This document shows positions 18,031 through 38,753 of a stretch of 64,000 nt of DNA, one piece after another. The stretch spans positions 23,998 through 87,997 of the forward strand of contig JBDRYB010000001.1 of the NCBI GenBank assembly GCA_039803205.1, written 5' to 3'. A program made the position numbers and the translations under genes. The notes under the pieces are model-generated. The model was not told where the DNA came from and did no database searches. It saw only the letters and a program-made list of their open reading frames with translations. The stretch's first letter is position 1, and every line of letters begins with the position of its first letter. The DNA comes from a candidate division WOR-3 bacterium. GTDB taxonomy: Bacteria > Hydrothermota > Hydrothermia > JBDRYB01.

Positions 18031-18096
18031 ATTCTAAGGGAAACACTGTCCGCGATCAAGTTGGAATCCCCCTGGGTTCCGGGTTATAATCTCAGC

Positions 18097-20097: not shown

Positions 20098-20196
20098 CGC
20101 GAACCGGACGAGGCTGTTTGGGGTTTCTGGGTATTAACTATGGCCTAATCAACTGATGGCCTGGCTCTTGAAAGAGTGGCCGCGGGACTCGTAAAG

Positions 20197-22373: not shown

Positions 22374-22389
22374 ATTATACACCTCCCCT

Positions 22390-22641
22390 TCATTCCCTCT
22401 CCTCCATCTCATACCAGAACCTCTCTATTACCGGATTGGTGAGGAGTCTGCGGGACACATCCTCTATCTGAGCGCGCGCTGAGGCCTCGTCCGGAGCCTC
22501 AAGCGAAAACCGAACTATCTTTCCAACGCGCCCCTCTGAGACCGAAAGCCCAAGCCGCCTCATCGCGGCCTCAACAGCCATGCCCTGTGGATCTCTGAGA
22601 TCGTCGTGGGGCAGAATGAAGACATGAACCAGGTATCTCAT
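22390..22641 (-). CDS. purS: phosphoribosylformylglycinamidine synthase subunit PurS
   Basis: 83 aa with typical PurS sequence; adjacent to purC. Confidence 0.85.
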   Translation of the reverse strand: MRYLVHVFILPHDDLRDPQGMAVEAAMRRLGLSVSEGRVGKIVRFSLEAPDEASARAQIEDVSRRLLTNPVIERFWYEMEERE

Positions 22642-23330
22642 TCCAATCTCCTAGCGACCTCTCTGTAGGTCTCAAGCACATCCCCCTTGTCCTCCCTGAA
22701 GACATCCTTGTCCAGGCTCTCACCATCAGGCGTCCATAAGCGCATGGTATCAGGGCTTATCTCATCAGCAAGATAAAGCTTTCCATCATCGCCCACACCG
22801 AACTCAAACTTCATGTCCACGAGCTCAAGCCCTTTCTGAGCGAAAAGCCCCTTGAGGGCTATCCCTGCATCCAAGGCAATCTTCTGCATCTCCTGCACTT
22901 GCTCCTCGTCAGCGATGCCGAGAGCGAGAACGGTCATTGGGCATATCAGTGGGTCATGGAGGGAATCGTCCTTCAGGGTAAATTCCACGAGGGGGATCTC
23001 CAAGCGTCTCCCCCTTTCAATCCCATAACGCTTGCAGAGGGAGCCAGCGGCCCTGAAGCGAACCAGAACCTCAAGGGGTATTATCCTCACTCGGCGTGCC
23101 AGGAAGCTGGTGGCTGATAGTTGACCGAGGAAATGCGTCCTTATGCCCTTGCTCTCCAAGAACTGGAAGAGTTTGACGGATATTCCGCAATTCAAGGCTC
23201 CCTTTCCCTCAACGGTTGCCCTTTTCAGGGCGTCAAAAGCGGTTAAAGAATCCTTGAAATGGATTATAACCCTGCCTGGCTCATCAGCCTCGTATACCTG
23301 TTTTGCTTTGCCCTCGTGGAGGAGCTTCAT
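22638..23330 (-). CDS. purC: phosphoribosylaminoimidazole-succinocarboxamide synthase
   Basis: SAICAR synthetase pattern from MKLLHEGKAKQVYEAD; start trimmed to the internal ATG. Confidence 0.9.
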   Translation of the reverse strand: MKLLHEGKAKQVYEADEPGRVIIHFKDSLTAFDALKRATVEGKGALNCGISVKLFQFLESKGIRTHFLGQLSATSFLARRVRIIPLEVLVRFRAAGSLCKRYGIERGRRLEIPLVEFTLKDDSLHDPLICPMTVLALGIADEEQVQEMQKIALDAGIALKGLFAQKGLELVDMKFEFGVGDDGKLYLADEISPDTMRLWTPDGESLDKDVFREDKGDVLETYREVARRLE

Positions 23331-23344
23331 GCTGAGATTATAAC

Positions 23345-23372
23345 GGTTGCCGGTTGCCGGTTGCCAGTTGCC
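23345..23372. repeat. tandem heptamer repeat (GGTTGCC x3 plus AGTTGCC)
   Basis: Read directly: ggttgcc ggttgcc ggttgcc agttgcc, in the intergenic region between purC and the divergent PhaR-like gene. Confidence 0.9.
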
Positions 23373-23486
23373 GGTCAACTTGAAACAAGTAGGTATTGGC
23401 CGGCTCTTTAACTCAATCGGAGGTAAGGTTTTGGCGCGAAGGCGCGCGATTGATCCTTCTTTGACCCTTGCCTTATAATTTACGCA

Positions 23487-23822
23487 ATGCGTAAAAAAAT
23501 CAGGCTCATCCACAGGTATTCAAACAGGAAGATGTATGACACGGCAGGGAAAGCCTTCATAACCCTGGGACAGGTCCTGAGGATGATCGCCCAGGGCATA
23601 AGGGTCAAGGTCATAGACAAGGTCTCGGGGATTGATGTGACCAACCTAATAAGGATAAGGGCAATAGCCAATGAGGCAGAGCGTATCGCCAGAAGGATGT
23701 CATCGGCGGCCTCCAGGGACGCGATAAAGCTCCAGGAATTAGCCGTGGAGCTCGGAAACCTCATGAGAGAGATGGCGAGGCTCAGTAGAATAGTGAAAAA
23801 GGAGGCGCAGAATGGAAGTTAA
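23487..23822 (+). CDS. PhaR-like regulator (PHB/PHA accumulation regulator N-terminal DNA-binding domain)
   Basis: HRYSNRKMYDTAGKAFITLGQV matches the PHB_acc_N signature (KkYpNRRLYDT); C-terminal coiled coil. Confidence 0.6.
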   Translation: MRKKIRLIHRYSNRKMYDTAGKAFITLGQVLRMIAQGIRVKVIDKVSGIDVTNLIRIRAIANEAERIARRMSSAASRDAIKLQELAVELGNLMREMARLSRIVKKEAQNGS

Positions 23823-25290
23823 GGCACTATCCCCCAACATATCAAAGCTTCTCAAAGGCGCCAGCGGCCGAGAGATAATAACTAGGCTTTCGGCCCCTGC
23901 CTTCAAAAACAGGGCCGTGAGGAAGGGGCTTCTGCTATACATTAAGTCCCAGATAAACCGAGGGAACTACTCCGCGATCGTTGCGGGGAATAGGCCGCCC
24001 GGAGTCAAAAGGGATGTAGCGTGGGCCGCGTGGGCCTTGTTGAGATCACTAGATAGGGCCATAGAGGACAAAAGGCTCTCTCACAGGTTCGCGGGGAGGC
24101 TGGTTGAGGTTTTTCTGAACAACATGGTGGCAAGCTGGGCCGATAGGGGAGAAATAAGCGGGTTTTTCAAAAACAAGGGGGAGAAAGGCCCGCCCGGTTT
24201 CCTGGTCATCAGCCCCGCTAAGGCGTGCAACCTCAGGTGTCCGGATTGCTACGCGGCCTCAGGCGCAAACCCTGAGAAGCTCAGCGCGCGCGAGTTCCGG
24301 AGGATAATCACGGAGGCAAAGGAGCTCTGGGGGGTCCGTTTCTTCGTGATCTCCGGCGGAGAACCTTTTCTATGGAGGGACGGGGATACCCGGTTCCTTG
24401 ATGTGGTTGAGGAAAACCCCGATTGCTTTTTCATGGTTTATACGAACGGAACCCTGATAGAGGATGAGGTCGCTGACAGGCTCTCAGAGCTCGCTAATCT
24501 TACCCCGGCAATATCCCTGGAGGGCTTTGAGGAGGAGACGGACAGCAGAAGGGGAAAGGGCACATACGAGAAGGTCCTCGGCGCAATGGCAAGGCTCAGA
24601 AAGAGGGGTATACCCTTCGGAATATCCCTCACTGCTACCAAGAGAAATTACAGGCTTCTGCTTTCTGATGGGTTCCTCAGCGAGTTCTTTGAGCGTCAGG
24701 GCGCGACATACGGTTGGATATTCCAGTATATGCCCATAGGCAGGGATCTGGATCTCTCGCTGATGCCAAGCCCGGAAGAAAGGCTATGGATGTGGAGGCG
24801 CGGGTGGGATGTGATAAGGAAGAAGGGTTATTTCCTGATGGACTTCTGGAACCAGGGAACGGTCTCAGCCGGGTGCATATCTGGCGGAAGGCACACGGGA
24901 TACCTTTACATAGACTGGAACGCTAATGTGTATCCGTGCGTCTTTGTTCCCTATGCCGGCGCGAACCTCAGGGAGATATACGCCAGGGGAGGGACGATAA
25001 CCGAGGCTTACGATTCGCCGCTTTTCAGGGCAATAAGGCGATGGCACGACGCTTACGGGTATGGTAAAACAGAGCCCAATAAGCACAAGAACTGGCTCGC
25101 GCCGTGCCTCATAAGGGATCACTTCCGCGTGCTCAAGAGGCTTGTGGAAAGACACGGGGCAAGGCCGGCGGATACGGTGGCCGCTGAGCTCATAAAAAAC
25201 CCCGAACACGGGGCATTCATGGAGGAATACGATAGGGTTTTCTCTGAGCTCACTCAACCGATATGGAAAAAGGAATATCTAGGGCCGTAG
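23812..25290 (+). CDS. radical SAM protein with about 130-aa N-terminal extension and C-terminal auxiliary Cys cluster
   Basis: CNLRCPDC motif; GGEPF; downstream cysteines (GCISGG...YPCVFVP, APCLI) suggest an auxiliary Fe-S (SPASM/twitch-like) region. Confidence 0.75.
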   Translation: MEVKALSPNISKLLKGASGREIITRLSAPAFKNRAVRKGLLLYIKSQINRGNYSAIVAGNRPPGVKRDVAWAAWALLRSLDRAIEDKRLSHRFAGRLVEVFLNNMVASWADRGEISGFFKNKGEKGPPGFLVISPAKACNLRCPDCYAASGANPEKLSAREFRRIITEAKELWGVRFFVISGGEPFLWRDGDTRFLDVVEENPDCFFMVYTNGTLIEDEVADRLSELANLTPAISLEGFEEETDSRRGKGTYEKVLGAMARLRKRGIPFGISLTATKRNYRLLLSDGFLSEFFERQGATYGWIFQYMPIGRDLDLSLMPSPEERLWMWRRGWDVIRKKGYFLMDFWNQGTVSAGCISGGRHTGYLYIDWNANVYPCVFVPYAGANLREIYARGGTITEAYDSPLFRAIRRWHDAYGYGKTEPNKHKNWLAPCLIRDHFRVLKRLVERHGARPADTVAAELIKNPEHGAFMEEYDRVFSELTQPIWKKEYLGP

Positions 25291-25934
25291 GCCTCGGGGT
25301 CTTCGCAGTAGCAATGGCATACCTTGAGTCCGCCGTAGTTATTTATCTGAGAAGGCTTTATTACCCTGAGGGCTTCTCCTTCCCAATGAAGCTGGCAGAT
25401 CCGTTTGTTGCCGCGGTTGAGGTGGGTCGCGAGCTGGCTACCATAATCATGCTCGGGGCCCTTGGTTTTCTCTCAGAAAGAACTCACGCGAGGCGTTTTC
25501 TGGCGTTTCTCTTTGTTTTCGGAATATGGGATATGTTCTATTACCTATGGCTCAAGGTCTTTCTCGGTTGGCCATCTGGTTGGCTTGACTGGGATGTCCT
25601 CTTTCTCTTTCCGGTTCCATGGTTCGCTCCCTGGATAACACCGACCCTCGTTGCTCTCGTCCTCTCATTTGTATCTGGAACCCTGCTGTTGATGGCTCGG
25701 AACGGCCGGGAAATAAGGATCGGCCTCCCTGAAATCGCCCTTGGGGTCCTCGGGTCCCTCGCATGCCTGTTCTCCTTCACATTTGACGGGTTCAGGCTCG
25801 CTCTCCGCGGCGTTGATGCGATCAGGGCCTTCGTGCCGGTCAGGTTCCTGTGGGAGGCCTATTTGCCGGGGCTCACGCTCATCACGGTAGCTGGTGGGAT
25901 TGTCGTTGAGCGAAACCGGGGCTCTGGTGTATAA
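25263..25934 (+). CDS. integral membrane protein, function unknown
   Basis: 223 aa with 5-6 hydrophobic helices. Confidence 0.5.
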   Translation: MEKGISRAVGLGVFAVAMAYLESAVVIYLRRLYYPEGFSFPMKLADPFVAAVEVGRELATIIMLGALGFLSERTHARRFLAFLFVFGIWDMFYYLWLKVFLGWPSGWLDWDVLFLFPVPWFAPWITPTLVALVLSFVSGTLLLMARNGREIRIGLPEIALGVLGSLACLFSFTFDGFRLALRGVDAIRAFVPVRFLWEAYLPGLTLITVAGGIVVERNRGSGV

Positions 25935-25942
25935 TATGAGGT

Positions 25943-26476
25943 ATGGCCAAAATAAGACAAAATGTGCTTTCCGGAATAGGCAAGCTCTTTCTGAGAGCCG
26001 CGAAACGAGGCCTCATGCCAAAGAGGATCGCTTATACACTCGTCGGTCTCGCCACATCCCTTACAGGCGCGTCAAAAGGCCCCTGCGCTGTGATGTGCTA
26101 TGAGGTTCCACCAACAGAACCGTGGATCTCTAGGGTTCTGATCACCAAGAATCCGCTGAGGGGCAAATTCAGGCTAACAGCCACCATAAAAAGCAACGAG
26201 AGGCCTGTGGGCGGTGCTGATGTCAATTTTTGGGTATGGAAGGATGGCCAGGCAGAGGTGTTTCGCGTTGTCCCCATGAACCCGGCTGATGGGGCGTTTG
26301 ATTCTCTAACGGAGGAGGCATATGCCGATCTGGCCCTATGGGGATGGCCCCAAGGAACGAAGATGAACATTTCCGCTTACGACAAGGATGGGAATCACGG
26401 CACCCCACTCAGGATTGGCGTTGAGGTGATGTTCGGGATCCTTTCATTTGAATGCGAGGAGATAGTGGGCTATTGA
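25943..26476 (+). CDS. hypothetical protein
   Basis: 177-aa ORF whose end overlaps the start of the downstream radical SAM/SPASM gene. Confidence 0.35.
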   Translation: MAKIRQNVLSGIGKLFLRAAKRGLMPKRIAYTLVGLATSLTGASKGPCAVMCYEVPPTEPWISRVLITKNPLRGKFRLTATIKSNERPVGGADVNFWVWKDGQAEVFRVVPMNPADGAFDSLTEEAYADLALWGWPQGTKMNISAYDKDGNHGTPLRIGVEVMFGILSFECEEIVGY

Positions 26477-27498
26477 GCGACAAACCAGTTCTCGCGGCCG
26501 CTTTTGAGACAACTCCCAGGTGCAACGCCAACTGTTTGTATTGTTATAATGTCTGGAAGGCTCATCCGGACTATCCAAGGGGGGAACCGGACGCGGAGGG
26601 TCTCCTCCGGGTCCTTGATGCCATCCTTAAGAGCGAGCGGGTGACCATCGTGAGCCTAACCGGCGGAGAGCCACTGCTTCTGGGCGATCTCATCCTTGAG
26701 ATGGGCGCTATGGCGAGGCTTTCAGGAAAATCCGTGAACCTCGTCACCAACGGTTCTCTTATCAGCAAAGGCTTTGCCAAGAACCTCAAGAGGCTCAGCA
26801 TAAGGCCCGTAGAGATAACCCTCCTATCAGCAAGGGAGGAGTTGCACGATTCCTTGCAAAGAGCGAGGACATTCCGGAGCGCAGTTAGCGCCATAAGGAC
26901 AGTGGCTGATGTCGGCGGGGAAGCAATAGTTGGCATAGTCGGAACGAAAGCAAACATTCCCTTTCTCTCCGAGACCCTTGAATTCGCAAAGACCCTCGGA
27001 GCCAAGGGCGCCATGTTCACCAGGTTCAACCCCGGCGGCCAGGGGCTTAGGCACTGGCGGGAGCTCGGGCCTTCCAAGGAGGAACTCAGGTCAGCCATAA
27101 AAACCCTTATGAAATTTGCCGACGAAAACCCAAACCTGACTATAACCTGCGGCGTTCCTATTCCCCCATGCGTTCTAGGTTTCACTGACTACGGAAGGGT
27201 AAAGATGGGTTATTGCAACGCTGGGGGCGATCTCATAGCCATAGATTGGCTCGGAAACCTCCGTCCGTGCAACCATTCCTCCCTTATAGTGGGGAACATA
27301 CTCAAGGTGCCCCTTGATGAGCTTCTGGAATCAAAGCGGTTAAAGGATTTCATGCTCCCTGTGCCTAAGATGTGCGTCGGTTGCCAGTTCTACGATCTAT
27401 GCAAGGGGGGTTGCCGGGCCGCGGCATTTGAGATGGCTTGGTGGCTCAGGAAGGAAAGGTCTGCTGGGTCCATCCGGTTTTCCGGACACACCATCTAG
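26452..27498 (+). CDS. radical SAM/SPASM domain protein
   Basis: CNANCLYC radical SAM motif; SPASM cysteines (CNAGGD...LRPC, CVGCQFYDLCKGGC). Confidence 0.8.
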   Translation: MRGDSGLLSDKPVLAAAFETTPRCNANCLYCYNVWKAHPDYPRGEPDAEGLLRVLDAILKSERVTIVSLTGGEPLLLGDLILEMGAMARLSGKSVNLVTNGSLISKGFAKNLKRLSIRPVEITLLSAREELHDSLQRARTFRSAVSAIRTVADVGGEAIVGIVGTKANIPFLSETLEFAKTLGAKGAMFTRFNPGGQGLRHWRELGPSKEELRSAIKTLMKFADENPNLTITCGVPIPPCVLGFTDYGRVKMGYCNAGGDLIAIDWLGNLRPCNHSSLIVGNILKVPLDELLESKRLKDFMLPVPKMCVGCQFYDLCKGGCRAAAFEMAWWLRKERSAGSIRFSGHTI

Positions 27499-27559
27499 GG
27501 AAGCGTAAAGACCTCCGCTAACCACGAGAAAATGATTTCGGGGAGGGACCCATCTGAGT

Positions 27560-27565
27560 TATAAT
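27560..27565 (+). promoter_or_regulatory. candidate -10 box (TATAAT) for tRNA-Leu
   Basis: TATAAT 10 nt upstream of the mature tRNA 5' end; no clear -35 element. Confidence 0.3.
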
Positions 27566-27575
27566 TTGGGGCTAA

Positions 27576-27657
27576 GCGAGGGTGGCGGAAAGGCAGACGC
27601 GCCAGATTTAGGATCTGGTGGGCTAATCCCGTGCGGGTTCAAGTCCCGCCCCTCGCA
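27576..27657 (+). tRNA. tRNA-Leu (anticodon UAG), type II with long variable arm
   Basis: Manual fold: acceptor GCGAGGG/CCCUCGC, anticodon stem CCAGA/UCUGG with loop UUUAGGA, T-arm GCGGG-UUCAAGU-CCCGC, discriminator A; the track ORF 27566.. runs through it. Confidence 0.85.
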
Positions 27658-27694
27658 TATCCATTCCAGTTCAGAGAAACATTTTGGAATAAAA

Positions 27695-28651
27695 ATGAAG
27701 GTTGCTGTTGTCGGAGCGGCTGGCCTGGTTGGAAGGACCATGCTTCGCGTCCTTGAGAAGAGGGGCTTTCCGGTCTCGGAGCTGGCGGCTTATGACAAGC
27801 TATCGGGAGAAAGTCTGCTCTTCCGCGGCAATAAGCACCTGTGCATCAGGTTAACTCCAACATCCGTCAGGGGTTTTGACCTCGCGCTTTTTTCGGCAGG
27901 TGCGGATGTCTCCCTGAAATACGCGCCCCTGTTTGCCAAAAAGGGCGCGCTAGTGGTTGACAATTCCTCCGCCTGGCGCATGCATCCCAAGGTTCCACTT
28001 GTCGTCCCAGAGGTGAACCCAGAGGCGCTCATGGATATTCCAATGGGCATCGTGGCCAATCCAAATTGTTCAACGATCCAGATGGTCGTGGCTCTCAAGC
28101 CCCTGGTTCGCTTCGGCATAAAGGAGGTCTTCGTGGCGACATATCAGGCGGTCTCAGGGGCTGGAAAGGACGGGATTGACGCGCTCATATCGGAAGAGAA
28201 GGGCAAGAGGTCGTCAAATTCCCCTCACCTCGGCCCAATTCACAGGAATGTCTTGCCCGGAATAGGAAACTTTGAGGAGGGTTTCTACGAGGAGGAGACG
28301 AAGCTCATCCGTGAGACAAAGAAAATAATGGGCCTTGATGTTCCCGTTCATCCGACCGCGGTGAGGGTTCCTGTGATAGCTGGCCACTCCGAGGCCGTTG
28401 CGGTAAGGCTAAAGAAGAAGGTAAGCCTTGAGGAAATAAAAGCTTCTATGGGAGAGCAGGAGGGCCTCGTCCTCAGCGATGGTTTTGTCACCCCGAAGGA
28501 GGCCGAGGGCAAGGATGAGGTCTTTGTCTCCAGGCTCAGATTTTCGCCTGATGATCCGAGGGTTCTCCTGATGTGGGTTGTCTCAGATAACCTTCTGAAG
28601 GGAGCCGCTCTCAACGCGGTTCAAATAGCAGAGAGGGCCCTATTGCGGTGA
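27695..28651 (+). CDS. asd: aspartate-semialdehyde dehydrogenase
   Basis: MKVAVVGAAGLVGRTML Rossmann N-terminus and Asd core; start at internal ATG 27695. Confidence 0.9.
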   Translation: MKVAVVGAAGLVGRTMLRVLEKRGFPVSELAAYDKLSGESLLFRGNKHLCIRLTPTSVRGFDLALFSAGADVSLKYAPLFAKKGALVVDNSSAWRMHPKVPLVVPEVNPEALMDIPMGIVANPNCSTIQMVVALKPLVRFGIKEVFVATYQAVSGAGKDGIDALISEEKGKRSSNSPHLGPIHRNVLPGIGNFEEGFYEEETKLIRETKKIMGLDVPVHPTAVRVPVIAGHSEAVAVRLKKKVSLEEIKASMGEQEGLVLSDGFVTPKEAEGKDEVFVSRLRFSPDDPRVLLMWVVSDNLLKGAALNAVQIAERALLR

Positions 28652-30277
28652 AAGAGGAGCGTCCCCGAACAGCCTCTTCCTCAGCCTGTTATAGTATTGC
28701 CTGTATTCGTCAATGTGGCGGTCATAGGGGAATTCGGGAAGGAGCTCTCCTTTCGCCAGCTCGCGGGCCCGGGCGAGGAGTTCCTCTTTCTCGGCGGGAT
28801 CCCGGGTCGCGTCAGCGAGCCTCATCAGGTTCTCAAGCTCGCCAAGGTCTGTCCAGACATCCTCAAGCTGGTAATAATCCCCCTTTTTGATGAGGAGATC
28901 AGGCCTACCTAAGTTCCGTCTGGCGACCACCATAGCTGTGTAGAGCAACTCCCTGGATCTTTCGTTGTATTTTCTTCTCGGCCATATCAGATAAAAAAGG
29001 TGATCGTAGGGCAATCTGTGTTTTGGTGAAAGGAGCAGATAGACGAATGCTCTGGCTGATTTCTTGTTCCGCCACTCGCTCAAATGAACCTCTCTTCGGT
29101 CGACAAATATCCTCATCTCACCGATCAAATGTGCCCTTATACCGGATTGTCTCCTCTGATCAACCCCATAGGTAAGAAGGGGATAAATTGCCTCAAGAAA
29201 CGGGCCTAAAATGGGATCACGACTCATAGCCCGGTAAGAAGGGGCAAGGGGAACCAAGAATCTCATGGCCTCATGGAAGACCGTACCGCCGTGCTTCCAT
29301 GCCAAAAACGCGGAGGAGAGACCTGTCACGAAAGCCTCTACTGGTTGATAAGCGTTAAGATAATCTCTGGCGGCCTTCAAAAGCTCATGAGGAAGGTCCG
29401 CTTTGTCCTCAGATAATAGGGCCTCTATCTCTCTTAGGGCCGCGAGCTCACCCAGTCCACCTTTTTTAGCAAAGTCCATGCACCTATCCACCATTTCCCT
29501 TGGAGGAGGCTCCAGACCAGCAAATCTAGCGATTTCAAGGGCTTTCGCACAAGGAAACGCTGAGTATGCTGAGCCTATTTCCAGATATCCCAGGGCTGAC
29601 TTCGTGTATAACTTCACCGCTCCTCCTAGATCCCCTAGCATCCTGAGAGCAAAACCCTTGACCTCCAGCAAGGCAGAGAGATGGCGCTTATCCTTTTCCG
29701 TTTTGATCAAGGATCTGAGCATATCAAGAGCCCTTTCCGGCTTGCCAGTTATTATGCTCAGAAGGGCCAGCAGATACCTGGCTCTGGGACTCTTTGACGA
29801 GGTTAGCGTGGGAAGAACTCCTTTTATATCCATGTAAAGGGTGTCGTATTCGGCTCTGAAAAACTTCAGGGAAAGGAGGTTCACTTTGGCAAATGACCAC
29901 AACTCCCTATCCTCAGCGTGCTCAGCTATGTCCAGGGCCTTTAAATAACAGTTCTCAGCAACCTCCATCTCCCCTGTTTGTCTGTAAACTAGCCCAAGCA
30001 TGCCATATATCCTTCCGGTCATCTCCGGTTCGCCGCGAACACGAGCGAGAAGCCTTCTCCCCTTTTTGATGGCTTCTGGAGCACGGGAACCCAGAACTGC
30101 GGCGCAGAAGTCCAAGAACGCAAAACCCAAAGGGTCCTCAGATTTCAGCTTTTCGACATAATTAGCAAAGGCTCCGGGGGAGCCTGTCTTCAGGATCTCT
30201 AGCCCTCTTTCAACCCTTTCTAAGAGCTTCACCCCGATATGATAAAATTCAGAATGGAGCAAATTCAAGTCGCGCAA
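28640..30277 (-). CDS. transcriptional regulator: N-terminal TPR-like domain plus C-terminal SARP/OmpR-like winged helix and short BTAD-like tail
   Basis: C-terminal WRNKKSARAFVYLLLSPKHRLPYDHLFYLIWP resembles winged-helix DNA-binding domains; paralog of 33844..35442; start is TTG, uncertain. Confidence 0.6.
   Translation of the reverse strand: MRDLNLLHSEFYHIGVKLLERVERGLEILKTGSPGAFANYVEKLKSEDPLGFAFLDFCAAVLGSRAPEAIKKGRRLLARVRGEPEMTGRIYGMLGLVYRQTGEMEVAENCYLKALDIAEHAEDRELWSFAKVNLLSLKFFRAEYDTLYMDIKGVLPTLTSSKSPRARYLLALLSIITGKPERALDMLRSLIKTEKDKRHLSALLEVKGFALRMLGDLGGAVKLYTKSALGYLEIGSAYSAFPCAKALEIARFAGLEPPPREMVDRCMDFAKKGGLGELAALREIEALLSEDKADLPHELLKAARDYLNAYQPVEAFVTGLSSAFLAWKHGGTVFHEAMRFLVPLAPSYRAMSRDPILGPFLEAIYPLLTYGVDQRRQSGIRAHLIGEMRIFVDRREVHLSEWRNKKSARAFVYLLLSPKHRLPYDHLFYLIWPRRKYNERSRELLYTAMVVARRNLGRPDLLIKKGDYYQLEDVWTDLGELENLMRLADATRDPAEKEELLARARELAKGELLPEFPYDRHIDEYRQYYNRLRKRLFGDAPLSPQ
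28665..28873. repeat. about 209-bp near-identical duplicated segment (copy A), 3' end of the regulator gene
   Basis: Direct comparison with 33860..34068 shows a constant offset of 5195 and about 6 mismatches. Confidence 0.9.
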
Positions 30278-30295
30278 GATGATAATATCATTTTG

Positions 30296-30327
30296 TTTCG
30301 GAACTTTTTCGGAGGATCGCTTATAAT
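30296..30327 (+). promoter_or_regulatory. direct repeats TTTCGGA at 11-bp spacing followed by a TATAAT -10 box
   Basis: TTTCGGA at 30296-30302 and 30307-30313, TATAAT at 30322-30327; AAAGGAG RBS and ATG 30356 downstream; divergent from the regulator gene. Confidence 0.5.
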
Positions 30328-30355
30328 ATGGGCATGTTAAAAAGGAGTGAGCATC

Positions 30356-31882
30356 ATGACAGAAGCATACACGCTAATAGGCCTTTTGGTGTCCCAGGTC
30401 TCTTTTGCTAGATCCTATGGAGGGCCTGATACTGAGAGCGTTCGTGGAATAGTCCAAACAACCGATGGAGGCTTCATTGTTGCGGGAGAGACAAAGAGCT
30501 TTGGGGCAGGGAGCTATGATTTTATGGCCATGAGGCTTCTGAGCACGGGGGATCCCTTCTGGGTAAAGACTCTCGGAGGGACCGGTGACGACAGGGCCTT
30601 CTCAGTAGCTCTGGCTATTGACGGTGGATGCGTCATCGTAGGAGAAACAAAGAGCTATGGCGTAGGGGACTATGATGTTTTGGTTATGAAGCTTGGCCCT
30701 GCTGGGGGATTCCGGTGGGCAAAAACCTATGGAGGGTTATTGCGAGAAAGAGGCACCTGCATCAAGCCAACCAGCGATACGGGATACATCCTCGCGGGAT
30801 GGACGGTTAGCTCAGGCCAGGGGTCCGCGGATCTCCTCGTGATGAAAATGGATTCAGCGGGCAATCGCGTCTGGACCAGGACATTTGGAGGTGACACCTC
30901 TGATTACGCGCATCAAGTGATACAGACCCAGGATGGAGGCTTCTTGGTTGCGGGAACGAGTAGGAGCTTTGGGGCAGGCGACTTTGATTTTCTCGTGCTC
31001 AAGCTCAACAGCTCTGGCACGCTGAGCTGGGCCAGAGCAATTGGTGGCCCGGGCATAGAAGACGCCAGGATCCTGAGCCAGACTACGGATAATGGCTACA
31101 TAGTCGGTGGGTGGACGAACAGCTTTGGCAGTGGAGACTACGATGTTCTCCTTGTGAAGTTGAATTCATCCGGAGGTTTTCAGTGGGCAAAAACCTATGG
31201 GGGTGCCAGCCTTGATTGGGGGACATCCGGCATCCTCCTCCCGGACGGGGGTTTCCTCGTTGTAGGAGTCACTTTGACTTACGATCCCGAAGGCGATCTA
31301 TTTCTTCTCAGGCTGGACCCGGCAGGGAATCCTGATTGGCTTAAGGTTCTCAAGGAGGAGGGAGATGGGGTAAGTGGCGCGACTACTGTGATACAAACTG
31401 GAGATGGTGGTTTCGCGGTTGGAGGTTGGAAGGGTGACTCGTGGGATTTTCTGGTCATAAAGACCGACCAAGACGGAAACTATGACGAAGACTCCAATTG
31501 CATGAAGCCCGACATCCTTACAAGCCTGACCATTATGCCCAATCTTGAAACTCTGACGCTCGGGGCAAGCTGGGTTCCTCTAGTATCCAACCCAAACCCA
31601 TCCCAGAATACGCCCTCCTTGACGATGACAAACGTGACCTGTGAACCTGTTTATGAGGAAGTTGGGGAATCTCTGGTTGAGCCGAATGACATAGTCTGCT
31701 ATCCGATTCCAAGGGCCATTGCGTTTATTTCTTCCTGTGCCGCGGAGATAAGTATCTACTCATCTGACGGGTGCGTGGCCTATTCGGGCACTCTAGAGAA
31801 GGGCAAAAATATGATACCCATTGACCGAGGCATTTACTTTTGGCAGGCAGGAGCTTATAAAGGAAAAGCCGTTGTGAGGTAA
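30356..31882 (+). CDS. secreted beta-propeller repeat protein (SBBP-like repeats) with C-terminal sorting-domain-like tail
   Basis: Multiple repeats of about 50 aa (T.DGGF.VAG.T.SFG.G..D.L..KL...G...W.KTYGG); signal-like N-terminus; C-terminal beta-sandwich-like tail resembling T9SS-type CTDs. Confidence 0.6.
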   Translation: MTEAYTLIGLLVSQVSFARSYGGPDTESVRGIVQTTDGGFIVAGETKSFGAGSYDFMAMRLLSTGDPFWVKTLGGTGDDRAFSVALAIDGGCVIVGETKSYGVGDYDVLVMKLGPAGGFRWAKTYGGLLRERGTCIKPTSDTGYILAGWTVSSGQGSADLLVMKMDSAGNRVWTRTFGGDTSDYAHQVIQTQDGGFLVAGTSRSFGAGDFDFLVLKLNSSGTLSWARAIGGPGIEDARILSQTTDNGYIVGGWTNSFGSGDYDVLLVKLNSSGGFQWAKTYGGASLDWGTSGILLPDGGFLVVGVTLTYDPEGDLFLLRLDPAGNPDWLKVLKEEGDGVSGATTVIQTGDGGFAVGGWKGDSWDFLVIKTDQDGNYDEDSNCMKPDILTSLTIMPNLETLTLGASWVPLVSNPNPSQNTPSLTMTNVTCEPVYEEVGESLVEPNDIVCYPIPRAIAFISSCAAEISIYSSDGCVAYSGTLEKGKNMIPIDRGIYFWQAGAYKGKAVVR

Positions 31883-31900
31883 CCCACTTGTAGTCACTAG

Positions 31901-31948
31901 CCCCGGCCGGTAAAATCATTGCACCTCCCGTCCCGGCCGGGGGTTTTT
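31901..31948. terminator. hairpin terminator element, copy 1 (10-bp GC stem, 22-nt loop, T5)
   Basis: CCCCGGCCGG - taaaatcattgcacctcccgtc - CCGGCCGGGG g TTTTT between convergent genes. Confidence 0.65.
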
Positions 31949-31968
31949 ATTTCCCAGATGAGAAGCCC

Positions 31969-33804
31969 TTATTGCCTATCCCAACCCAAACCCCACATTC
32001 CCCTGGTCCAAGCCCTGCCGTTCCTGCAGGGGGTTCCTGCTGGATAGTTGTCCTTGCCTGATAGGTCAAGGAATATGCCAACGCCTCCAGCGTCCCGGGC
32101 CCTGTTCGCATCGCCGAGGCCTATGTCCTCCCTGGCGGAATATGTGTCATCCCCATCAGAATCCACGAAGATCCCAACGGAATTCGTCAAACCTATACCG
32201 AGGCCGCCGGAGACCTGGTAGTTGTCGTTGCCGCGCTTGTCAATTAGCCAGCCAACAGCGAGGTCGTGGCCCTCGCCCTGGGATGGGCCGTATCTTGAAT
32301 AATAGTGATCCGAGCCGGAGTAATCCCCGAGAAGTCCGACCGAGAGGTGGATTCCGGAGCCCTGCGCGTATTGCACAGCGGAATAGAAGTCGTCGCCAGA
32401 CAGATCGAGGAGAATGCCTGCCGAATACCAGTATGAACAGCCCTGCGCGTATACCTCGCCCTGATACAGGTCGTTGCCCTCGCGGTCCAAAAGAACTGAG
32501 ATCCCCCCAGAAGCGCGTGGTCTAATTCCGATTGAATAGCCTTGCGCGAACGCCCTGTAGTTGTGTTCAAGGAGGGGTTTGTGCAGGTATTCTCCTCCAG
32601 CGTAATAGACATCATCTCCCCCCACCTCGTCCAAGATAGCGCAGCCCTTGACCGATGAGAAGGCCTGAGCGCAAGAGAATGCCCTCATAACATCATCCCC
32701 TCCGCCCTCGTGCATGTAGGAGACCCCGAACATGGCCGCGGATTGTGCGAAAAAGCCGGAGTAATAGAGATCGTCTCCGGCCTTATCCGAGAGAAAACCC
32801 GCGCCGAAAAGCCCCATACCCATTGTGTAATGAGGGGCCCGATACAGGTCATCCCCTGAGAGGTCAACCAGGGCACCGTAGCCCATGAGGCCAGCGCCAA
32901 GGGAGACGAAATCTTCAGCCAGATAAGCGTCATTGCCGCAAAGATCAATCACGGCCGAGAGGGGCCTCCCCAGAAACCCAACCGATCCCCCAGGCCTCCC
33001 GTAGTAGGCGTCTGAGCCACCCTTGTCCAGTATAAGGTGATATAGGGCTGTGGTCTCGGCCGGATGAACATCATCCCCTTCTCCTTTGACCAAAACCCTC
33101 CACTGGCCAGCGGAATAGCTGCCCTCAGGAATTCCCTGTGAGAACATCGTGATCTCCTCTACCCCCATTGAGAACGCTAGGGCTCCGAGGGCTAGCTCAC
33201 GCCAATCAACCAGAGCCGCCAACTCCAGTATCCTTGAAGAGTCATCGCACCAGGCTGTGTCCACCGGAAACCCAAATTCCCTGAGCAGACAGCCCCGCAG
33301 AGTGTCCAGAAGGGTATCACCCTCGTCCGCCCAAAGGGAAAGGGAGTAGTAGAGGAGGGTATCAATCTGGGGCCTGCTCAGCCGCGAAAAGGCTTTTTGC
33401 CTGTGAGCATCAGCCTCGTCCCAGGAGGCTCTGAGGTATGCGAGGCCAGCTTCCCATCCCTTTTTGCCCGCCATGGCCTTTTCAAATCTCTTTCGCATCT
33501 CGTTCGTATCCTTGGGAGAGAGCCCGACATCGAGAAGGGAAAAGCCGAGGAACATGGTGGATGTCGGATTACCGGTTGATCTTGCTATTTCGGCCCTGCA
33601 GGAGTCAGCAAAATGAGGCACATCCATGGGCTTCGCCATCAATCTGTCAACCGTCTTGAGCCTGAATGAGTCGCGGTCGGCCCAGTCCTTGTTGTATGAG
33701 AGGTCCTCTGGGGCCAGATTAATGTAAGCTAGGGCCTGGATGATGGCACTTGTTTCGGCTGTATCAAGGAGAAACTGCGAGAGAAGCAAAAGCGTCATGT
33801 TCAA
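31969..33804 (-). CDS. secreted repeat protein (short G/D-rich repeats, possible beta-helix)
   Basis: Repeated pattern of about 22 aa (G.D.Y....Y.QG.G....G.L.D.SG.D.Y); hydrophobic N-terminus. Confidence 0.5.
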   Translation of the reverse strand: MNMTLLLLSQFLLDTAETSAIIQALAYINLAPEDLSYNKDWADRDSFRLKTVDRLMAKPMDVPHFADSCRAEIARSTGNPTSTMFLGFSLLDVGLSPKDTNEMRKRFEKAMAGKKGWEAGLAYLRASWDEADAHRQKAFSRLSRPQIDTLLYYSLSLWADEGDTLLDTLRGCLLREFGFPVDTAWCDDSSRILELAALVDWRELALGALAFSMGVEEITMFSQGIPEGSYSAGQWRVLVKGEGDDVHPAETTALYHLILDKGGSDAYYGRPGGSVGFLGRPLSAVIDLCGNDAYLAEDFVSLGAGLMGYGALVDLSGDDLYRAPHYTMGMGLFGAGFLSDKAGDDLYYSGFFAQSAAMFGVSYMHEGGGDDVMRAFSCAQAFSSVKGCAILDEVGGDDVYYAGGEYLHKPLLEHNYRAFAQGYSIGIRPRASGGISVLLDREGNDLYQGEVYAQGCSYWYSAGILLDLSGDDFYSAVQYAQGSGIHLSVGLLGDYSGSDHYYSRYGPSQGEGHDLAVGWLIDKRGNDNYQVSGGLGIGLTNSVGIFVDSDGDDTYSAREDIGLGDANRARDAGGVGIFLDLSGKDNYPAGTPCRNGRAWTRGMWGLGWDRQ

Positions 33805-33843
33805 AGGTTAAACCAGAAGGAGGCTGGAAGGCAAGGACGGCTT

Positions 33844-35442
33844 TCAGGTCTGATTATCTCCGAACAGCCTCTTCCTCAGCCTGTTATAGTATTGCCTGTA
33901 TTCGTCAATGTGGCTGTCATAGGGGAATTCGGGAAGGAGCTCGCCTTTCGCCAGCTCGCGGGCCCGGGCGAGGAGTTCCTCTTTCTCGGCGGGATCGCGG
34001 GTCGCGTCAGCGAGCCTCATGAGGTTCTCAATCTCTCCAAGGTCTGTCCAGACATCCTCAAGCTGGTAGAAGTCGCCTCGTTTGGTGAGCAATTGTGGTT
34101 TGCCCAGATTCCTGCGGATAGTGTAAATAGCAGTATAAAGCCACTTCCTCGTCCTGGCGTCGTATCTCCTCCTGGGCCACAGCAGATACGCAAGGTGATC
34201 CTGGGATATTCTGTGTTTAGGCGAGAGCAAGAGGTAGAGCAGAGCCATCAACGCCCTTGAGTTTCGCCACGCCCTAAGGGAAACCTCTTCCCCATCCACC
34301 TGGAGCATGAACTCACCAAGCAGGCTCGCCCTCACGCCCTGCACTGTCCTTTCGCCCTTCCCATATCTAAGCAGGGGTTCCACGCTGATCATGAATTCTC
34401 CTAGCAAAGGGTCGCGCCTGAACCCTGGGTGAAGAGGCAAGAGGGGCGCGAGTAACTTGAGGATCTTCGGGAAAACCGGGTGGTCGTCTTGCCATGCAAA
34501 AAGGGCTGCTGTGAGGCCTGTAAGGATGACCTCTATGTTCTGGTTGACCCTATAGTATCCGAGTGCGGCGTCAAAAAGGAGCTCGGTGGATCTTTTGGGG
34601 TCCTCACACAGGAGTGCTTCGATCTCCTGGGCCCCTGCCTTCTCTCCTGACGAACCCCTCCTGGCAAGTGCCAGACATCTCCTTACAAGCTTCTTGGGAG
34701 GAGGCTCCAGCCCAGCGAGTCGCGTGAGCTCAAGAGCCTTGGCACAAGGGAAGGTCGCGTAGGCAGAACCGAATTCAATGGCGATGTTCATGGACTCCAC
34801 ATATAGATCCCTCGCCTCCTGTAGTTTCCCCATCATCCTGCTGGCCAATCCCTTCATCTCTGTAGCACCCAAAAGGACTATACTGCCGCCCTCGCTGATG
34901 ATGGAATCCAAGAGTTTCAATGCCTTCTCTGGGTTTCCACGGATTATCTCAAGTGCGGCCACTAGGTACTTGGCACCCCCGGTGATCTCTGGACTCCTCA
35001 CCCGCGCGAGGAATCCCCTTGCTTCGTTGTAAAGCGGTTCGTATTCAGCTCTAAAGAATCTGTTGGTCAGAAGTCTCAATCTTGCAATGGAGGCCAGGGT
35101 CAGGTCTCCCGCCTGTCCGGCCATATCCTCTGCTCTAACAAAGTATCCATCGGCTGCATCCAGTTCTCCTATTAGTTCGTAAGCGGTGCCAAGGCAGTTG
35201 AAAAGAAAACTCGCAAGCCTGGGCTTGCCCGAAACTCTTGAAATGAGCCTGGTTCCTTTCCTTATGGCGCTAGAATTGTGATTGTAGACCGCCAGGCGAA
35301 CCTCCAGTAGTTCCGCGGCCAGAAGGTCTTCAAGCTTAAGGCAACGAATGTATCTCATTAAGTCATCCAACTGGCCTGACTTCATCATTGTTAGGCCGCG
35401 TTCAATCCTATCCAAAGTATCCACGTCTAGAGTATAAACCAA
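33844..35442 (-). CDS. transcriptional regulator paralog (TPR-like plus SARP/OmpR-like winged helix)
   Basis: Same architecture as 28640..30277; last 70 aa almost identical; start is TTG, uncertain. Confidence 0.6.
   Translation of the reverse strand: MVYTLDVDTLDRIERGLTMMKSGQLDDLMRYIRCLKLEDLLAAELLEVRLAVYNHNSSAIRKGTRLISRVSGKPRLASFLFNCLGTAYELIGELDAADGYFVRAEDMAGQAGDLTLASIARLRLLTNRFFRAEYEPLYNEARGFLARVRSPEITGGAKYLVAALEIIRGNPEKALKLLDSIISEGGSIVLLGATEMKGLASRMMGKLQEARDLYVESMNIAIEFGSAYATFPCAKALELTRLAGLEPPPKKLVRRCLALARRGSSGEKAGAQEIEALLCEDPKRSTELLFDAALGYYRVNQNIEVILTGLTAALFAWQDDHPVFPKILKLLAPLLPLHPGFRRDPLLGEFMISVEPLLRYGKGERTVQGVRASLLGEFMLQVDGEEVSLRAWRNSRALMALLYLLLSPKHRISQDHLAYLLWPRRRYDARTRKWLYTAIYTIRRNLGKPQLLTKRGDFYQLEDVWTDLGEIENLMRLADATRDPAEKEELLARARELAKGELLPEFPYDSHIDEYRQYYNRLRKRLFGDNQT
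33860..34068. repeat. about 209-bp near-identical duplicated segment (copy B)
   Basis: Matches 28665..28873. Confidence 0.9.
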
Positions 35443-35479
35443 TTGGGGAATCCACTGCTATATGCGCATTTGTCCTAAC

Positions 35480-35514
35480 TTGCTAGAGTTTTGCTAGAAA
35501 ACCCTACTTATAAT
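35480..35514 (+). promoter_or_regulatory. direct repeats TTGCTAGA at 11-bp spacing followed by a TATAAT -10 box
   Basis: TTGCTAGA at 35480-35487 and 35491-35498, TATAAT at 35509-35514, then GGAGG RBS and ATG 35551. Confidence 0.5.
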
Positions 35515-35550
35515 TTAGGGCCTTATGAAAAAGAGACACGGAGGTGTCAG

Positions 35551-37155
35551 ATGATAGGGATGATAGGAATCTTTATCGGTGCAACCACGGTCAACTGGCC
35601 CTGCTGGGGCGGAGACCCGGAGCGCCAGGGATTGCAGACCACTCCAGGAGCGTTCATAAGCGCTCCTTCAACAAAGTGGAAAGTCCAGACCTACCAACTC
35701 GTCAGGTGGGAATTCTCAGCGATAGCCGATGTTGACGGCGACGGCCAGATGGAGGTCCTCGTAGGATGCTACAACGGATACCCCGGCTTCTTTTGCATCA
35801 ATGGCTCCACGGGCACAGTTGAGTGGTCGGTTAACACATACCTAAGCGGAGTGCTTGCGGGTCCGGCCGTAGCTGATGTGGACAACGATGGCCAGAATGA
35901 GGTGATCTTCGCTAGCAGTGGTTCTGGTGCGGGAGACGATACGGTCTATTGTTACAGCGGAATGGGCTCTCGGAAGTGGGCCTTTTGTAATCCTTCTTCT
36001 GGGAGATACTGGTCCTCGCCGGCCATCGTTGATCTAGATGGAGACGGCAATATGGAGGTGTTAATAGGCAATTCTGACGGGGGGACAGACACTCTGAGCA
36101 GAAGAAGCCTCTATTGCCTGAATGGCTCTAATGGCACCCAGAAGTGGTCATACATTTCAGGCAACTCGGTGGACTGTGCATCCCCATCTGCGGCTGATGT
36201 TGATGGCGATGGCAAGCTAGAAGTGCTCTTCGTGAACTGGGCTAATAGGCTCTTCTGCATCAGCGATACCGTGGTGGCCGGCAACGACACATGCAGGGTG
36301 GAGTGGACATACCCATTCGGTGCTAGCGGTGGGATACAGTGCACCCCGGTTCTTCTCGATCTTGATGGCGACGGTAAGATGGAGATAGTTACTGCCAACG
36401 CGAATTTTAACTCTAATAACCTCTACTGCTTGAACACAGCCACCATCTCAGGCAACGATACAGCGGTTGTCAAGTGGACCTTCTCTGCTGGAAGATATAT
36501 ATACTCCTCTCTATCCGCCGCAGACGCTGACGGAAATGGTATCATAGATGTTTTCGTTGGTAGTTGGGACTCCCTATTATACTGCCTGGACGGAGCAACT
36601 GGCGCCAAGAAGTGGCAATTCGGAAAGGTGCCGGAGATACTCTATACACCTATATCAGTGATGGACGCGGACGGCGCTCATCCCAGCGGCGACCCTGGGC
36701 TTGAGGTTCTTCTTACAGCCAAGGACACCCTATACTGTGTGAACGCGGAGGATGGCTCTCTGCTTTGGAAAGCGAGGGTGGCGCCCCGTGTCAACACACC
36801 GTTCTCAGGGGACATAGACGGAGATGGGGCTTCTGAGATAATAGTCGGTGCAGACAGCGCGTTGTACGCGCTTGATACAGCAAGTCCGGTTTACGAGGGC
36901 ATAGGTGACAATAACAACAACGGAGACCTCGTCCTGTTCCGGTTCACAAACAACCGCTTTTATCTTTATCTGCCAGAAGAGGATGGGATCTCAATCGCTC
37001 TTTACGACGCTGGAGGGCGATTCGTTAAAAGTATCTTTGAAGGCCATCTGAGCTCTGGTAGCCACAACTTTGAGCTGAGTTCGGAGGCCAAGGGGGTCTA
37101 CATCGCTGTTCTCAGGCACAACGAGGGCATAAAGACCCTGAAGATAGCGAGGTAA
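35551..37155 (+). CDS. secreted FG-GAP/PQQ-like beta-propeller protein with C-terminal sorting-domain-like tail
   Basis: Repeated D(V/L)DGDG..E(V/I) and LYC(L/I)...G motifs; hydrophobic N-terminus; C-terminal tail similar to that of 37245..38753; start at ATG 35551 after GGAGG. Confidence 0.6.
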   Translation: MIGMIGIFIGATTVNWPCWGGDPERQGLQTTPGAFISAPSTKWKVQTYQLVRWEFSAIADVDGDGQMEVLVGCYNGYPGFFCINGSTGTVEWSVNTYLSGVLAGPAVADVDNDGQNEVIFASSGSGAGDDTVYCYSGMGSRKWAFCNPSSGRYWSSPAIVDLDGDGNMEVLIGNSDGGTDTLSRRSLYCLNGSNGTQKWSYISGNSVDCASPSAADVDGDGKLEVLFVNWANRLFCISDTVVAGNDTCRVEWTYPFGASGGIQCTPVLLDLDGDGKMEIVTANANFNSNNLYCLNTATISGNDTAVVKWTFSAGRYIYSSLSAADADGNGIIDVFVGSWDSLLYCLDGATGAKKWQFGKVPEILYTPISVMDADGAHPSGDPGLEVLLTAKDTLYCVNAEDGSLLWKARVAPRVNTPFSGDIDGDGASEIIVGADSALYALDTASPVYEGIGDNNNNGDLVLFRFTNNRFYLYLPEEDGISIALYDAGGRFVKSIFEGHLSSGSHNFELSSEAKGVYIAVLRHNEGIKTLKIAR

Positions 37156-37244: not shown

Positions 37245-38753
37245 ATGTCTGACATGTATATCATAGGAATGCTGGCCTCCCAAATCCTTGGGACCTGGCC
37301 TATGTGGGGCTATAACCCAGCACACTGGGCTGTCCAACCGGTGCCTGGCACTCATACAACTGCTCCGGTTATGAAGTGGAGTATCTCAACTGGTGATCAG
37401 GTTCAGTGGCTCTTTTCTGCCACAGGTGATGTTGATCGTGATGGCAGAAATGAGGTTCTGGCTGGCTCTTTTTCTGGAACTTTTTACTGCTTGGACGGAA
37501 CCACCGGGGCAACCAAATGGAGCTTTAACGTCGAATCCGAATCACCGATAGAAACCTGCCCGGCTCTTGCGGACATGGCTGGAAATGGTTCAGTAGAGGT
37601 AGTCTTCGCCACTTGGGGCGGAGAAGTCTATTGCCTTGATGGGACGGACGGGAGCGTAAAATGGCAATACGTAACCACCTACTACGATCAATACCACCAC
37701 GGCCCGGTTGTCGTTGATTGCGATGCTGATGGTGATCTGGATGTTGTTATCGGAAACATATATGGAAGTCTATACTGCTTCGATGGTGAGACGGGAACGC
37801 TGATCTGGAACGCTAACATGAGCTCCACAGAAAACTCTTCTCCTGCCGCCGGTGATATAGATGGAGATGGCAAGATAGAGATAGTTATAGGAGGCTCATC
37901 GGGGACCTATTCTTTGAACGGTTCAAACGGAGCCTTGGAGTGGTTGGCTTCAACGGGTATCTGTGCTAATTCATCTCCAGGAATAGCTGACTGCGATGGA
38001 GATGGTCTCGCTGAGGTGATTATAGGTTCTGAGGATTATAATATCTACTGTCTTGATGGTCAAACCGGAGCCGAGAAGTGGCGTTATTCTACCGGAAACA
38101 GGGTTTGGTCTTCTCCTGTGATCCTTGATGCTGACGGAGACGGGCTTCTTGAGATAATAATAGGGAGCTTTGACGGCTACGCTTACTGTCTGAGCGGGGA
38201 ATCCGGAACCCTCCAGTGGAGAACGCAGGTCGGCGACATCCGCGTGGGCATCCCTGCTGGGGATGTGGACGGCGATAACAGATATGAGGTGATCATAGGG
38301 AATACTAGTGGATACACATGCCTCAACGGTGAGGACGGCTCTGTTCTTTGGAGATCAGCACCATCTAGCGGCGGTAGGTCCGTTTACCTCGCGGATGTTG
38401 ACATGGACGGGTGTGTTGAAATTGTGGGTGGGTCAACCGGTTATGATATATATGTGCTTGATGATCCCGGAAACTCGTCGGGTTGTATGAGTATGGGAAA
38501 GGATGAAGAGGGGTATGGCCCAGATTCTCCTGAATTCAAGCCCATGGGTAAAAGTTTATATCTTTTTCTCCCCGAGGATGAGCAGGTTTCTCTGAGCCTA
38601 TACGATGCCTCAGGTAAGCTCGTTCAAAAGGTATATGATGGGGTCCTGAGGCAGGGAAGTCACACCTTCAGCCCCAACATAAACGCTAAAGGTATCTACT
38701 TCGCGGTTATGAGGTATCAGAAAGGGATGAAAACCCTGAAGATTGTGCGATAA
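37245..38753 (+). CDS. secreted FG-GAP/PQQ-like beta-propeller protein with C-terminal sorting-domain-like tail
   Basis: Paralog of 35551..37155; repeated D.DGDG and YCLDG motifs; C-terminal ...KGMKTLKIVR tail. Confidence 0.6.
   Translation: MSDMYIIGMLASQILGTWPMWGYNPAHWAVQPVPGTHTTAPVMKWSISTGDQVQWLFSATGDVDRDGRNEVLAGSFSGTFYCLDGTTGATKWSFNVESESPIETCPALADMAGNGSVEVVFATWGGEVYCLDGTDGSVKWQYVTTYYDQYHHGPVVVDCDADGDLDVVIGNIYGSLYCFDGETGTLIWNANMSSTENSSPAAGDIDGDGKIEIVIGGSSGTYSLNGSNGALEWLASTGICANSSPGIADCDGDGLAEVIIGSEDYNIYCLDGQTGAEKWRYSTGNRVWSSPVILDADGDGLLEIIIGSFDGYAYCLSGESGTLQWRTQVGDIRVGIPAGDVDGDNRYEVIIGNTSGYTCLNGEDGSVLWRSAPSSGGRSVYLADVDMDGCVEIVGGSTGYDIYVLDDPGNSSGCMSMGKDEEGYGPDSPEFKPMGKSLYLFLPEDEQVSLSLYDASGKLVQKVYDGVLRQGSHTFSPNINAKGIYFAVMRYQKGMKTLKIVR

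Follow-up and report, generated by a model that had tools for sequence, protein, structure and literature searches.

SARPs (AfsR, EmbR and the ActII-ORF4/DnrI type) are actinomycete transcriptional regulators, found at antibiotic clusters, in which an OmpR-type DNA-binding domain is followed by a BTAD. The BTAD of AfsR comprises seven helices (alpha4–alpha10), of which alpha5 and alpha6 form the interfaces between protomers, while the linker between alpha9 and alpha10 touches sigma R4 (PMC11301090); a SARP box consists of direct repeats located 8 nucleotides (nt) upstream of the -10 element (PMC11301090). Interlocus gene conversion between bacterial paralogues has been described for rRNA operons and for antigen families of M. 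tuberculosis (PMC6002687, PMC13061034). Here, we analyze a 64,000-nt stretch of a candidate division WOR-3 genome (contig JBDRYB010000001.1 of GCA_039803205.1; hereafter the window), which matches the ABIM74 metagenome-assembled genome (MAG) and carries two tandem regulator genes, A (ABIM74_04210) and B (ABIM74_04225), whose 3′ ends are nearly identical. Each encodes a TPR-like solenoid followed by a winged helix and a short helical tail, and each is transcribed divergently from a gene for a beta-propeller protein (Table 1).

A preliminary description of the window, made from its letters alone, had proposed that two TPR plus winged-helix paralogues differ over most of their length but share a final stretch of ~209 bp with about six mismatches. 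Open reading frames, alignment and predicted structure bear out the two paralogues, and a base-by-base comparison showed coordinates and counts to be exact, with the six mismatches in the 209 bp falling at 28720, 28748, 28802, 28826, 28837 and 28841. Dense mismatches start at once beyond both edges of this block: the aligned bodies of A and B outside it differ at 638 of 1371 nt (46.5%; nucleotide identity ~53%), and at that rate the probability of six or fewer mismatches in 209 nt is 7e-47. In a codon-aware alignment the bodies are ~44% identical in amino acid (aa) sequence over the first ~455 residues, as against 97% aa and 96–98% nucleotide identity over the last ~70 codons, so that the tail is, as had been claimed, far more conserved than the rest of either gene. 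Identity along the gene pair is thus anything but uniform, with third positions agreeing at a rate of 0.2–0.5 along the body and 0.90–0.97 in the tail. The right edge of the block (28664) is merely where homology between A and B ends. Its left edge, by contrast, is abrupt despite conserved adjoining residues; the step in identity lies inside the conserved peptide GD[Y/F]YQLED, between GD[Y/F]Y and QLED, and identical residues upstream of the step use different codons. No third copy of the block was found within the window.

Recent gene conversion or recombination had been suggested as the cause, and the silent sites support this suggestion. Among the 66 tail residues that are identical in A and B, 61 use the same codon (0.92), compared with 26.8 (0.41) expected from codon usage (P = 9e-19). 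For identical residues elsewhere in the genes, the proportion encoded by the same codon is near expectation: 0.39 for the winged helix and 0.40 for the entire body.

To place the pair within its family we searched 5.8 billion proteins for homologues. The search returned 60, several per MAG, and every one with a named organism belongs to candidate division WOR-3. In all 60 the tail is the best-conserved segment (52–91% aa identity to A, compared with 33–48% in the body); closely similar tail proteins are therefore to be expected throughout the family and do not by themselves speak for recombination. At the DNA level, we assembled a family set of 16 loci from two GTDB genomes and 59 metagenome loci, plus other paralogues of the same species. 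Across 2331 non-orthologous pairs, tail nucleotide identity averaged 0.66 (99th percentile 0.85), as compared to 0.97 for A and B. The bodies of A and B are no closer to each other than to other paralogues, making the tract incongruent with the rest of the gene. The same tail was also looked for in other regulators of the species, as the preliminary description had advised, and the tails of P0004, P0056 and P0041 proved only 0.63–0.82 identical to A, to B and to one another. These sequence comparisons point to a relatively recent event that is specific to this pair of neighbouring, co-oriented paralogues. They show that the last 209 bp of A and B have been homogenized by non-reciprocal homologous exchange, and that this exchange is much younger than the paralogues themselves.

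Two further observations concern the family at large. One metagenomic genome, QZM1.Bin.61 (loci L002, L010, L011, L015, L016 and L017), holds 11 or more family loci, and family genes are where many of its contigs break off, which suggests that the family fragments short-read assemblies. The tail of L015 contains an in-frame stop (YIDE*RQYY), marking either a possible pseudogene or an error.

The domain architecture of the regulators was examined with an AlphaFold2 model of A, built from a 50-sequence alignment (predicted local distance difference test, pLDDT, 92). Foldseek searches with the full-length model matched only TPR proteins (LGN, MalT domain III and Rap receptors), and because these swamped the results we modelled the C-terminal 170 aa separately (pLDDT 93). 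In a fold search, the tail helices superposed on the first part of the BTAD in EmbR and in AfsR, with 155–174 aligned columns for the C-terminal module. A phmmer search over 1.84 billion representatives returned 24 clusters at E <= 1e-30, mostly proteins of ~525 aa with the module at about 360–525, while more distant matches carry a Pfam BTAD and comprise large SARPs (DNA-binding domain, BTAD, NB-ARC, TPR), small SARPs, and TPR–winged helix–BTAD proteins of 586–811 aa. Thus, from the superposition and from these links to proteins with a Pfam BTAD, the C-terminus of A and B is predicted to be a SARP-like module with a truncated BTAD. The earlier label of a BTAD-like tail would hold for about the first 60 of the 146 Pfam BTAD positions, to which the tail aligns; it does not extend to a complete BTAD, as only three helices are present. 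Searches of PDB sequences with A, with a full-family profile and with a C-terminal profile gave TPR proteins only or nothing significant. Neither A nor B matched Response_reg, the receiver (REC) domain family; in place of a receiver, the N-terminus has an all-alpha solenoid resembling TPRs.

Within the winged helix, the recognition helix alpha3 is as variable across the family as the TPR region (1.83 compared with 1.94 bits of entropy). The preliminary description had placed the recognition helix at RLPYDHLFYLIWP, but this motif covers a strand and alpha2 and is in fact the most conserved element of the winged helix (mean entropy 0.67 bits).

The pairing of regulator and secreted propeller is shared by most of the 41 other loci from which a partner could be recovered, as judged by N- and C-terminal motifs, with a sample confirmed by Pfam. 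Upstream of each of the two propeller genes lies a perfect direct repeat with an 11-nt period. The window contains only five perfect repeats with this spacing; those of A and B are the only ones that precede a TATAAT, and each is unique in the window. We counted perfect direct repeats of at least 7 nt in 52 unique family upstream regions, using coding DNA as a control: repeats with 11-nt spacing numbered 35 (2.04/kb), compared with 0.06/kb in coding DNA and at most 0.35/kb for other spacings. Across the family upstream regions, the second repeat starts 14–20 nt before the -10. The box also co-varies with the recognition helix, alpha3 identity being 0.81 in pairs with the same box and 0.38 in pairs with different boxes; at TPR identity below 0.55 the figures are 0.70 and 0.38, with only 7 same-box pairs. 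These data are consistent with the A and B boxes being putative regulator-specific, SARP-like sites. Counting the window and loci L005–L077, the divergent promoters of 35 of 52 unique family loci carry such paralogue-specific repeats 7–10 nt upstream of TATAAT(AT).

Taken together, these studies make it probable that A and B are tandem paralogues of WOR-3 SARP-like activators, whose tails were homogenized by non-reciprocal exchange, with the tail as a shared output surface and a private box for each regulator. In this reading, A and B, 5.2 kb apart and in the same orientation, would be WOR-3-specific one-component activators with an N-terminal TPR-like sensor. Each would bind as a tandem dimer to its own 11-nt-period direct repeat, which abuts the -10 of the divergent propeller gene, and the bound regulator would activate that gene, as comparative sequence suggests. 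By analogy with alpha4–alpha6 of the AfsR BTAD, the tail would pack on the DNA-binding domain and make head-to-tail dimer contacts, and possibly contacts with RNA polymerase. Selection on the protein would keep the tail near constant across paralogues as a common output surface, while sensor and recognition helix would stay specific to each paralogue.

Such conservation may also account for where the exchange took place. RecA-dependent recombination needs roughly 20–30 nt of identity. The longest exact runs shared between paralogues are 11–17 nt in the bodies, 15–35 nt in unconverted tails, and 55 nt between A and B. The runs in the bodies are therefore too short for RecA whereas those in the tail are long enough, so that the conserved tail would be the only segment able to seed recombination, and exchanges would start and stay there; this explains the confinement of the tract. 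The event itself may have been either interlocus gene conversion or, equivalently as far as sequence goes, a junction at 28873/28874 that joined one tail to the other body. We found no close orthologue of A or B with an unconverted tail, and the B locus of the strain behind GCA_039803125.1 did not turn up.

Several points weigh against this account. Firstly, tail synonymous identity between genomes is also somewhat raised (up to 0.81–0.82), and part of the A/B signal could thus reflect codon constraint. Secondly, the idea that all tails of a genome evolve in concert was considered and rejected, as the mean identity among 18 tails from four genomes was 0.71 within genomes and 0.69 between them; conversion is therefore sporadic rather than systematic. 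Thirdly, Pfam and NCBIfam recognize only TPRs in A and B, with BTAD absent and Trans_reg_C below threshold. Fourthly, the covariation of box and alpha3 is confounded by phylogeny, and same-box pairs among distant regulators are few; DNA binding, dimerization, activation and what the tail does are inferences on our part. Finally, the B tail is known from one strain only, and the sequence would fit either copy as donor, and conversion as well as a chimeric junction, in which an A–propeller cassette would have arrived next to asd.

The last of these possibilities borders on the alternative that fares best, namely that the tail is a recombination anchor, at whose 5′ edge bodies and partner propellers are swapped between strains or paralogues, the identity of A and B being a by-product. 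Gene order lends this idea some substance. A 609–611-aa gene lies downstream of a family regulator in 3 of 3 WOR-3 genomes and abuts asd (aspartate-semialdehyde dehydrogenase) directly except in the window; because the order in L002 and L012 is regulator, 609–611-aa gene, asd, B is the positional orthologue of the L002/L012 regulator, and relative to these two loci the A–propeller unit looks like an insertion that separates the 609-aa gene from asd. The 3′ ends of asd and A overlap by 12 nt (28640–28651), and homology between A and B stops 13 nt short of the asd stop codon. Gene A is without the family's usual stop codon and instead carries six extra C-terminal codons (APLSPQ) that are the antisense of the asd 3′ end, which suggests that the unit was inserted at the A/asd junction. 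Metagenomic loci resemble mosaics as well: a comparison of L021:4820–8134 with L025:236–3544 gave ~100% identity in the tail, its downstream flank and ~1 kb of the 5′ part of the gene, but 55–88% across the winged helix and 45–78% in the partner gene, and in L020/L021 and L023/L027 tail and downstream sequence are 97–100% identical while the bodies differ. However, no donor of the divergent patches of L021/L025 was found among 80 loci (best about 80%), and the mosaic contigs come from short-read metagenome assemblies, in which the assembler may switch paths at this repeat. Moreover, the flanks downstream of the A and B tails in the window are unrelated, so that A/B is not itself a same-locus replacement. 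The mosaic loci could thus be cassette exchange or assembler path-switching, and we treat them as a lead; that swapping at an anchor explains the A/B identity strikes us as unlikely.

Much less probable still is an origin without any recombination, in which strong purifying selection on a critical protein surface, together with codon bias, would have kept the tails alike. The family-wide conservation of the tail is what this would predict, and tail synonymous identity is mildly raised in many family pairs. Selection on the protein does not, however, fix synonymous sites to the extent seen between A and B, and same-species paralogues whose tail proteins are 81–87% identical are only 79–82% identical in nucleotides. 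Nor would it readily produce a step in identity within a conserved peptide. This origin is accordingly disfavoured.

We also attach very little weight to an assembly artefact, in which a metagenome assembler would have collapsed the two tails or copied one onto the other paralogue. A near-identical repeat of 209 bp is the type of sequence that confuses short-read assemblers, and contigs of other family loci often terminate in these genes. Three independent assemblies nonetheless agree on the block. In GCA_039803125.1, a separate MAG that derives from a different sample and is ~99% identical, A body, tail and asd are joined in the same way. The A tail of this MAG has the A-type base at three of the six variant sites, so that A-type bases recur in a second sample, and the B-type base at the other three. 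Two Logan contigs (run SRR27730023) match the window at 100%, over 17695–28694 and 28844–33889, and the contig ends at 28694, 28844 and 33889 each lie exactly 30 nt within the block (28665–28694, 28844–28873 and 33860–33889). With a Logan k that we take to be 31, 30 nt is k-1, and such ends are what one expects of a genuine repeat present in two copies, each with its own flanks, and with boundaries as measured. The six differences kept between the copies speak against collapse, and with no more than 56 nt between informative sites, reads of ordinary length are able to phase these. The block is not an assembly artefact, and both copies are present in one genome.

That three sites of the A tail carry B-type bases in the sister strain was also considered as a trace of ongoing exchange. 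This was rejected as unnecessary: 3 of 209 nt (1.4%) is close to the strain background of 107 of 9440 (1.1%), and plain mutation after the exchange therefore suffices.

A conserved nucleotide element within the coding sequence (a structured RNA, an antisense transcript or open reading frame, or a protein-binding site) has no support and is hardly credible: antisense frames of 80 and 90 aa overlap both tails but end differently in A and B, synonymous identity is unexpectedly high in some between-genome tails yet most family tails differ by 15–35% in nucleotides and so preserve no common element, Rfam gave no match in 28000–36000, and neither strand of the block has an unusual folding energy (z -0.45 and -0.20).

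The features of the locus are collected in Table 1. With the NCBI start codons, A (start at 30232) would be 530 aa and B 526 aa long. The 609–611-aa protein (window 31969–33798; L002:1534–3369; L012:3038–4870) is conserved and rich in repeats of the type G-[DN]-D-x-Y, and had no match in Pfam or NCBIfam. The gene that immediately follows B's partner, at 37245–38753 (+), encodes a second FG-GAP/PQQ-like propeller, which has a type IX secretion system (T9SS) sorting domain; the two genes may share a transcription unit. On the other side of the locus, 23812–27498 (+) encodes two radical-SAM enzymes, of which the second carries a SPASM domain, with two small unannotated open reading frames (223 and 177 aa) between them, and this may be a peptide-maturation cluster. 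A restriction-modification pair, consisting of an N6/N4 DNA methylase and a HinfI-like endonuclease, is located at 20197–22412 (-); the sister strain and the Logan contig have it as well.

Table 1. Features of the regulator locus, in window coordinates (residue numbers refer to A as the listed open reading frame)
Feature	Position	Strand	Remarks
asd, aspartate-semialdehyde dehydrogenase	27695..28651	+	Convergent with A
Gene A (ABIM74_04210), regulator with TPR solenoid, winged helix and predicted truncated BTAD	28640..30277	-	545 aa as listed open reading frame
Shared block, copy in A	28665..28873	-	Codons 469–538, from the last strands of the wing through the three terminal helices; differs from B copy at 6 sites
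Three tail helices of A (predicted truncated BTAD)	res 477–537, 28667..28849	-	Helices 477–490, 494–507, 520–537
Recognition helix alpha3 of A	res 439–456, 28910..28963	-	Hypervariable in family; B equivalent 34105–34158
OmpR-type winged helix of A	res 378–476, 28850..29146	-	B equivalent 34045–34341
Parts of the A winged helix	res 380–476		Sheet 380–397, alpha1 405–416, alpha2 424–431, alpha3 439–456, hairpin 462–476
TPR-like all-alpha solenoid of A	res 1–375		AlphaFold2
Candidate A box, TTTCGGA-N4-TTTCGGA	30296..30313	+	11-nt period; repeats at 30296 and 30307; 8 nt before TATAAT (30322–30327)
Divergent partner of A, secreted DUF5122/SBBP-type beta-propeller	30356..31882	+	
609-aa gene downstream of B	31969..33798	-	No family match (Pfam, NCBIfam)
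Gene B (ABIM74_04225 = P0003), paralogue of A	33844..35442	-	532 aa as listed open reading frame
Shared block, copy in B	33860..34068	-	Direct repeat at constant offset 5195
Candidate B box, TTGCTAGA-N3-TTGCTAGA	35480..35498	+	11-nt period; repeats at 35480 and 35491; 10 nt before TATAAT (35509–35514)
Divergent partner of B, FG-GAP beta-propeller	35551..37155	+	T9SS-type C-terminal sorting domain

The recombination event described here is ordinary biology, but it offers a clean, well-bounded case of a conserved domain segment as the sole recombination-competent patch between old paralogues. The family is more useful than the event: a SARP-like group outside actinomycetes, expanded in an uncultivated phylum, whose C-terminal module stops after the third BTAD helix. 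The pairing with propellers and the paralogue-specific boxes make regulator–site specificity testable (alpha3 versus box), and the truncated BTAD provides a natural experiment on the minimum number of BTAD helices for activation. More tentatively, and with clear doubts on our part, WOR-3 bacteria might carry modular regulator plus secreted-propeller cassettes (at least 5–11 per genome), in which the truncated-BTAD tail would be both output surface and recombination anchor, and the exchange of bodies and partners would diversify T9SS-type surface proteins, each with a private SARP-like activator and box.

Among described regulators with a similar N-terminus, the solenoid of A superposes on MalT domain III (1hz4, TMt 0.56) and on Rap (8rsv, TMt 0.65), a likeness of fold only, at 10–14% identity; the output domain of MalT and of Rap/RRNPP receptors differs from that of A and B, for which no ligand or peptide gene was identified. 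OmpR/PhoB two-component response regulators have an N-terminal REC domain where A and B have the TPR-like solenoid instead. The closest relatives outside the family, P0087, P0089, P0092, P0094 and P0106 (phmmer E 5e-17 to 2e-8 with the C-terminal 170 aa), are 586–811 aa long and share the domain order of A and B, but their BTAD is complete (Pfam positions 1 to about 135 of 146) and they are 60–280 aa longer; the truncated WOR-3 family may descend from a form of this kind. With respect to recombination, A and B are like known cases of interlocus conversion in that a short, near-identical tract, silent sites included, lies within diverged, close genes in the same orientation; they are unlike them in that the tract covers only a small segment, which encodes a single domain of the regulators, and in that the family is otherwise not homogenized.

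SARPs are also among the systems closest to A and B. Both have a winged helix of the OmpR/PhoB type, and the layout of SARP targets (direct repeats one helical turn apart, ~8 nt before the -10 and overlapping the -35) appears to be matched by the candidate A and B boxes. The differences are several: the SARP module is N-terminal in SARPs but occupies residues 378–537 of 545 in the A/B arrangement, behind a 375-aa TPR solenoid; the SARP BTAD is complete, whereas the predicted BTAD of A and B reaches the stop codon after three helices, so that the helices through which AfsR contacts sigma R4 (around the alpha9–alpha10 linker) are absent; and, unlike SARPs, A and B are without an NB-ARC/ATPase domain. 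Lastly, this family is found in candidate division WOR-3, beside secreted propeller genes rather than antibiotic clusters. Within the library that we searched, no paper names both WOR-3 and SARP, and the A/B family is an undescribed, expanded SARP-like variant outside actinomycetes.

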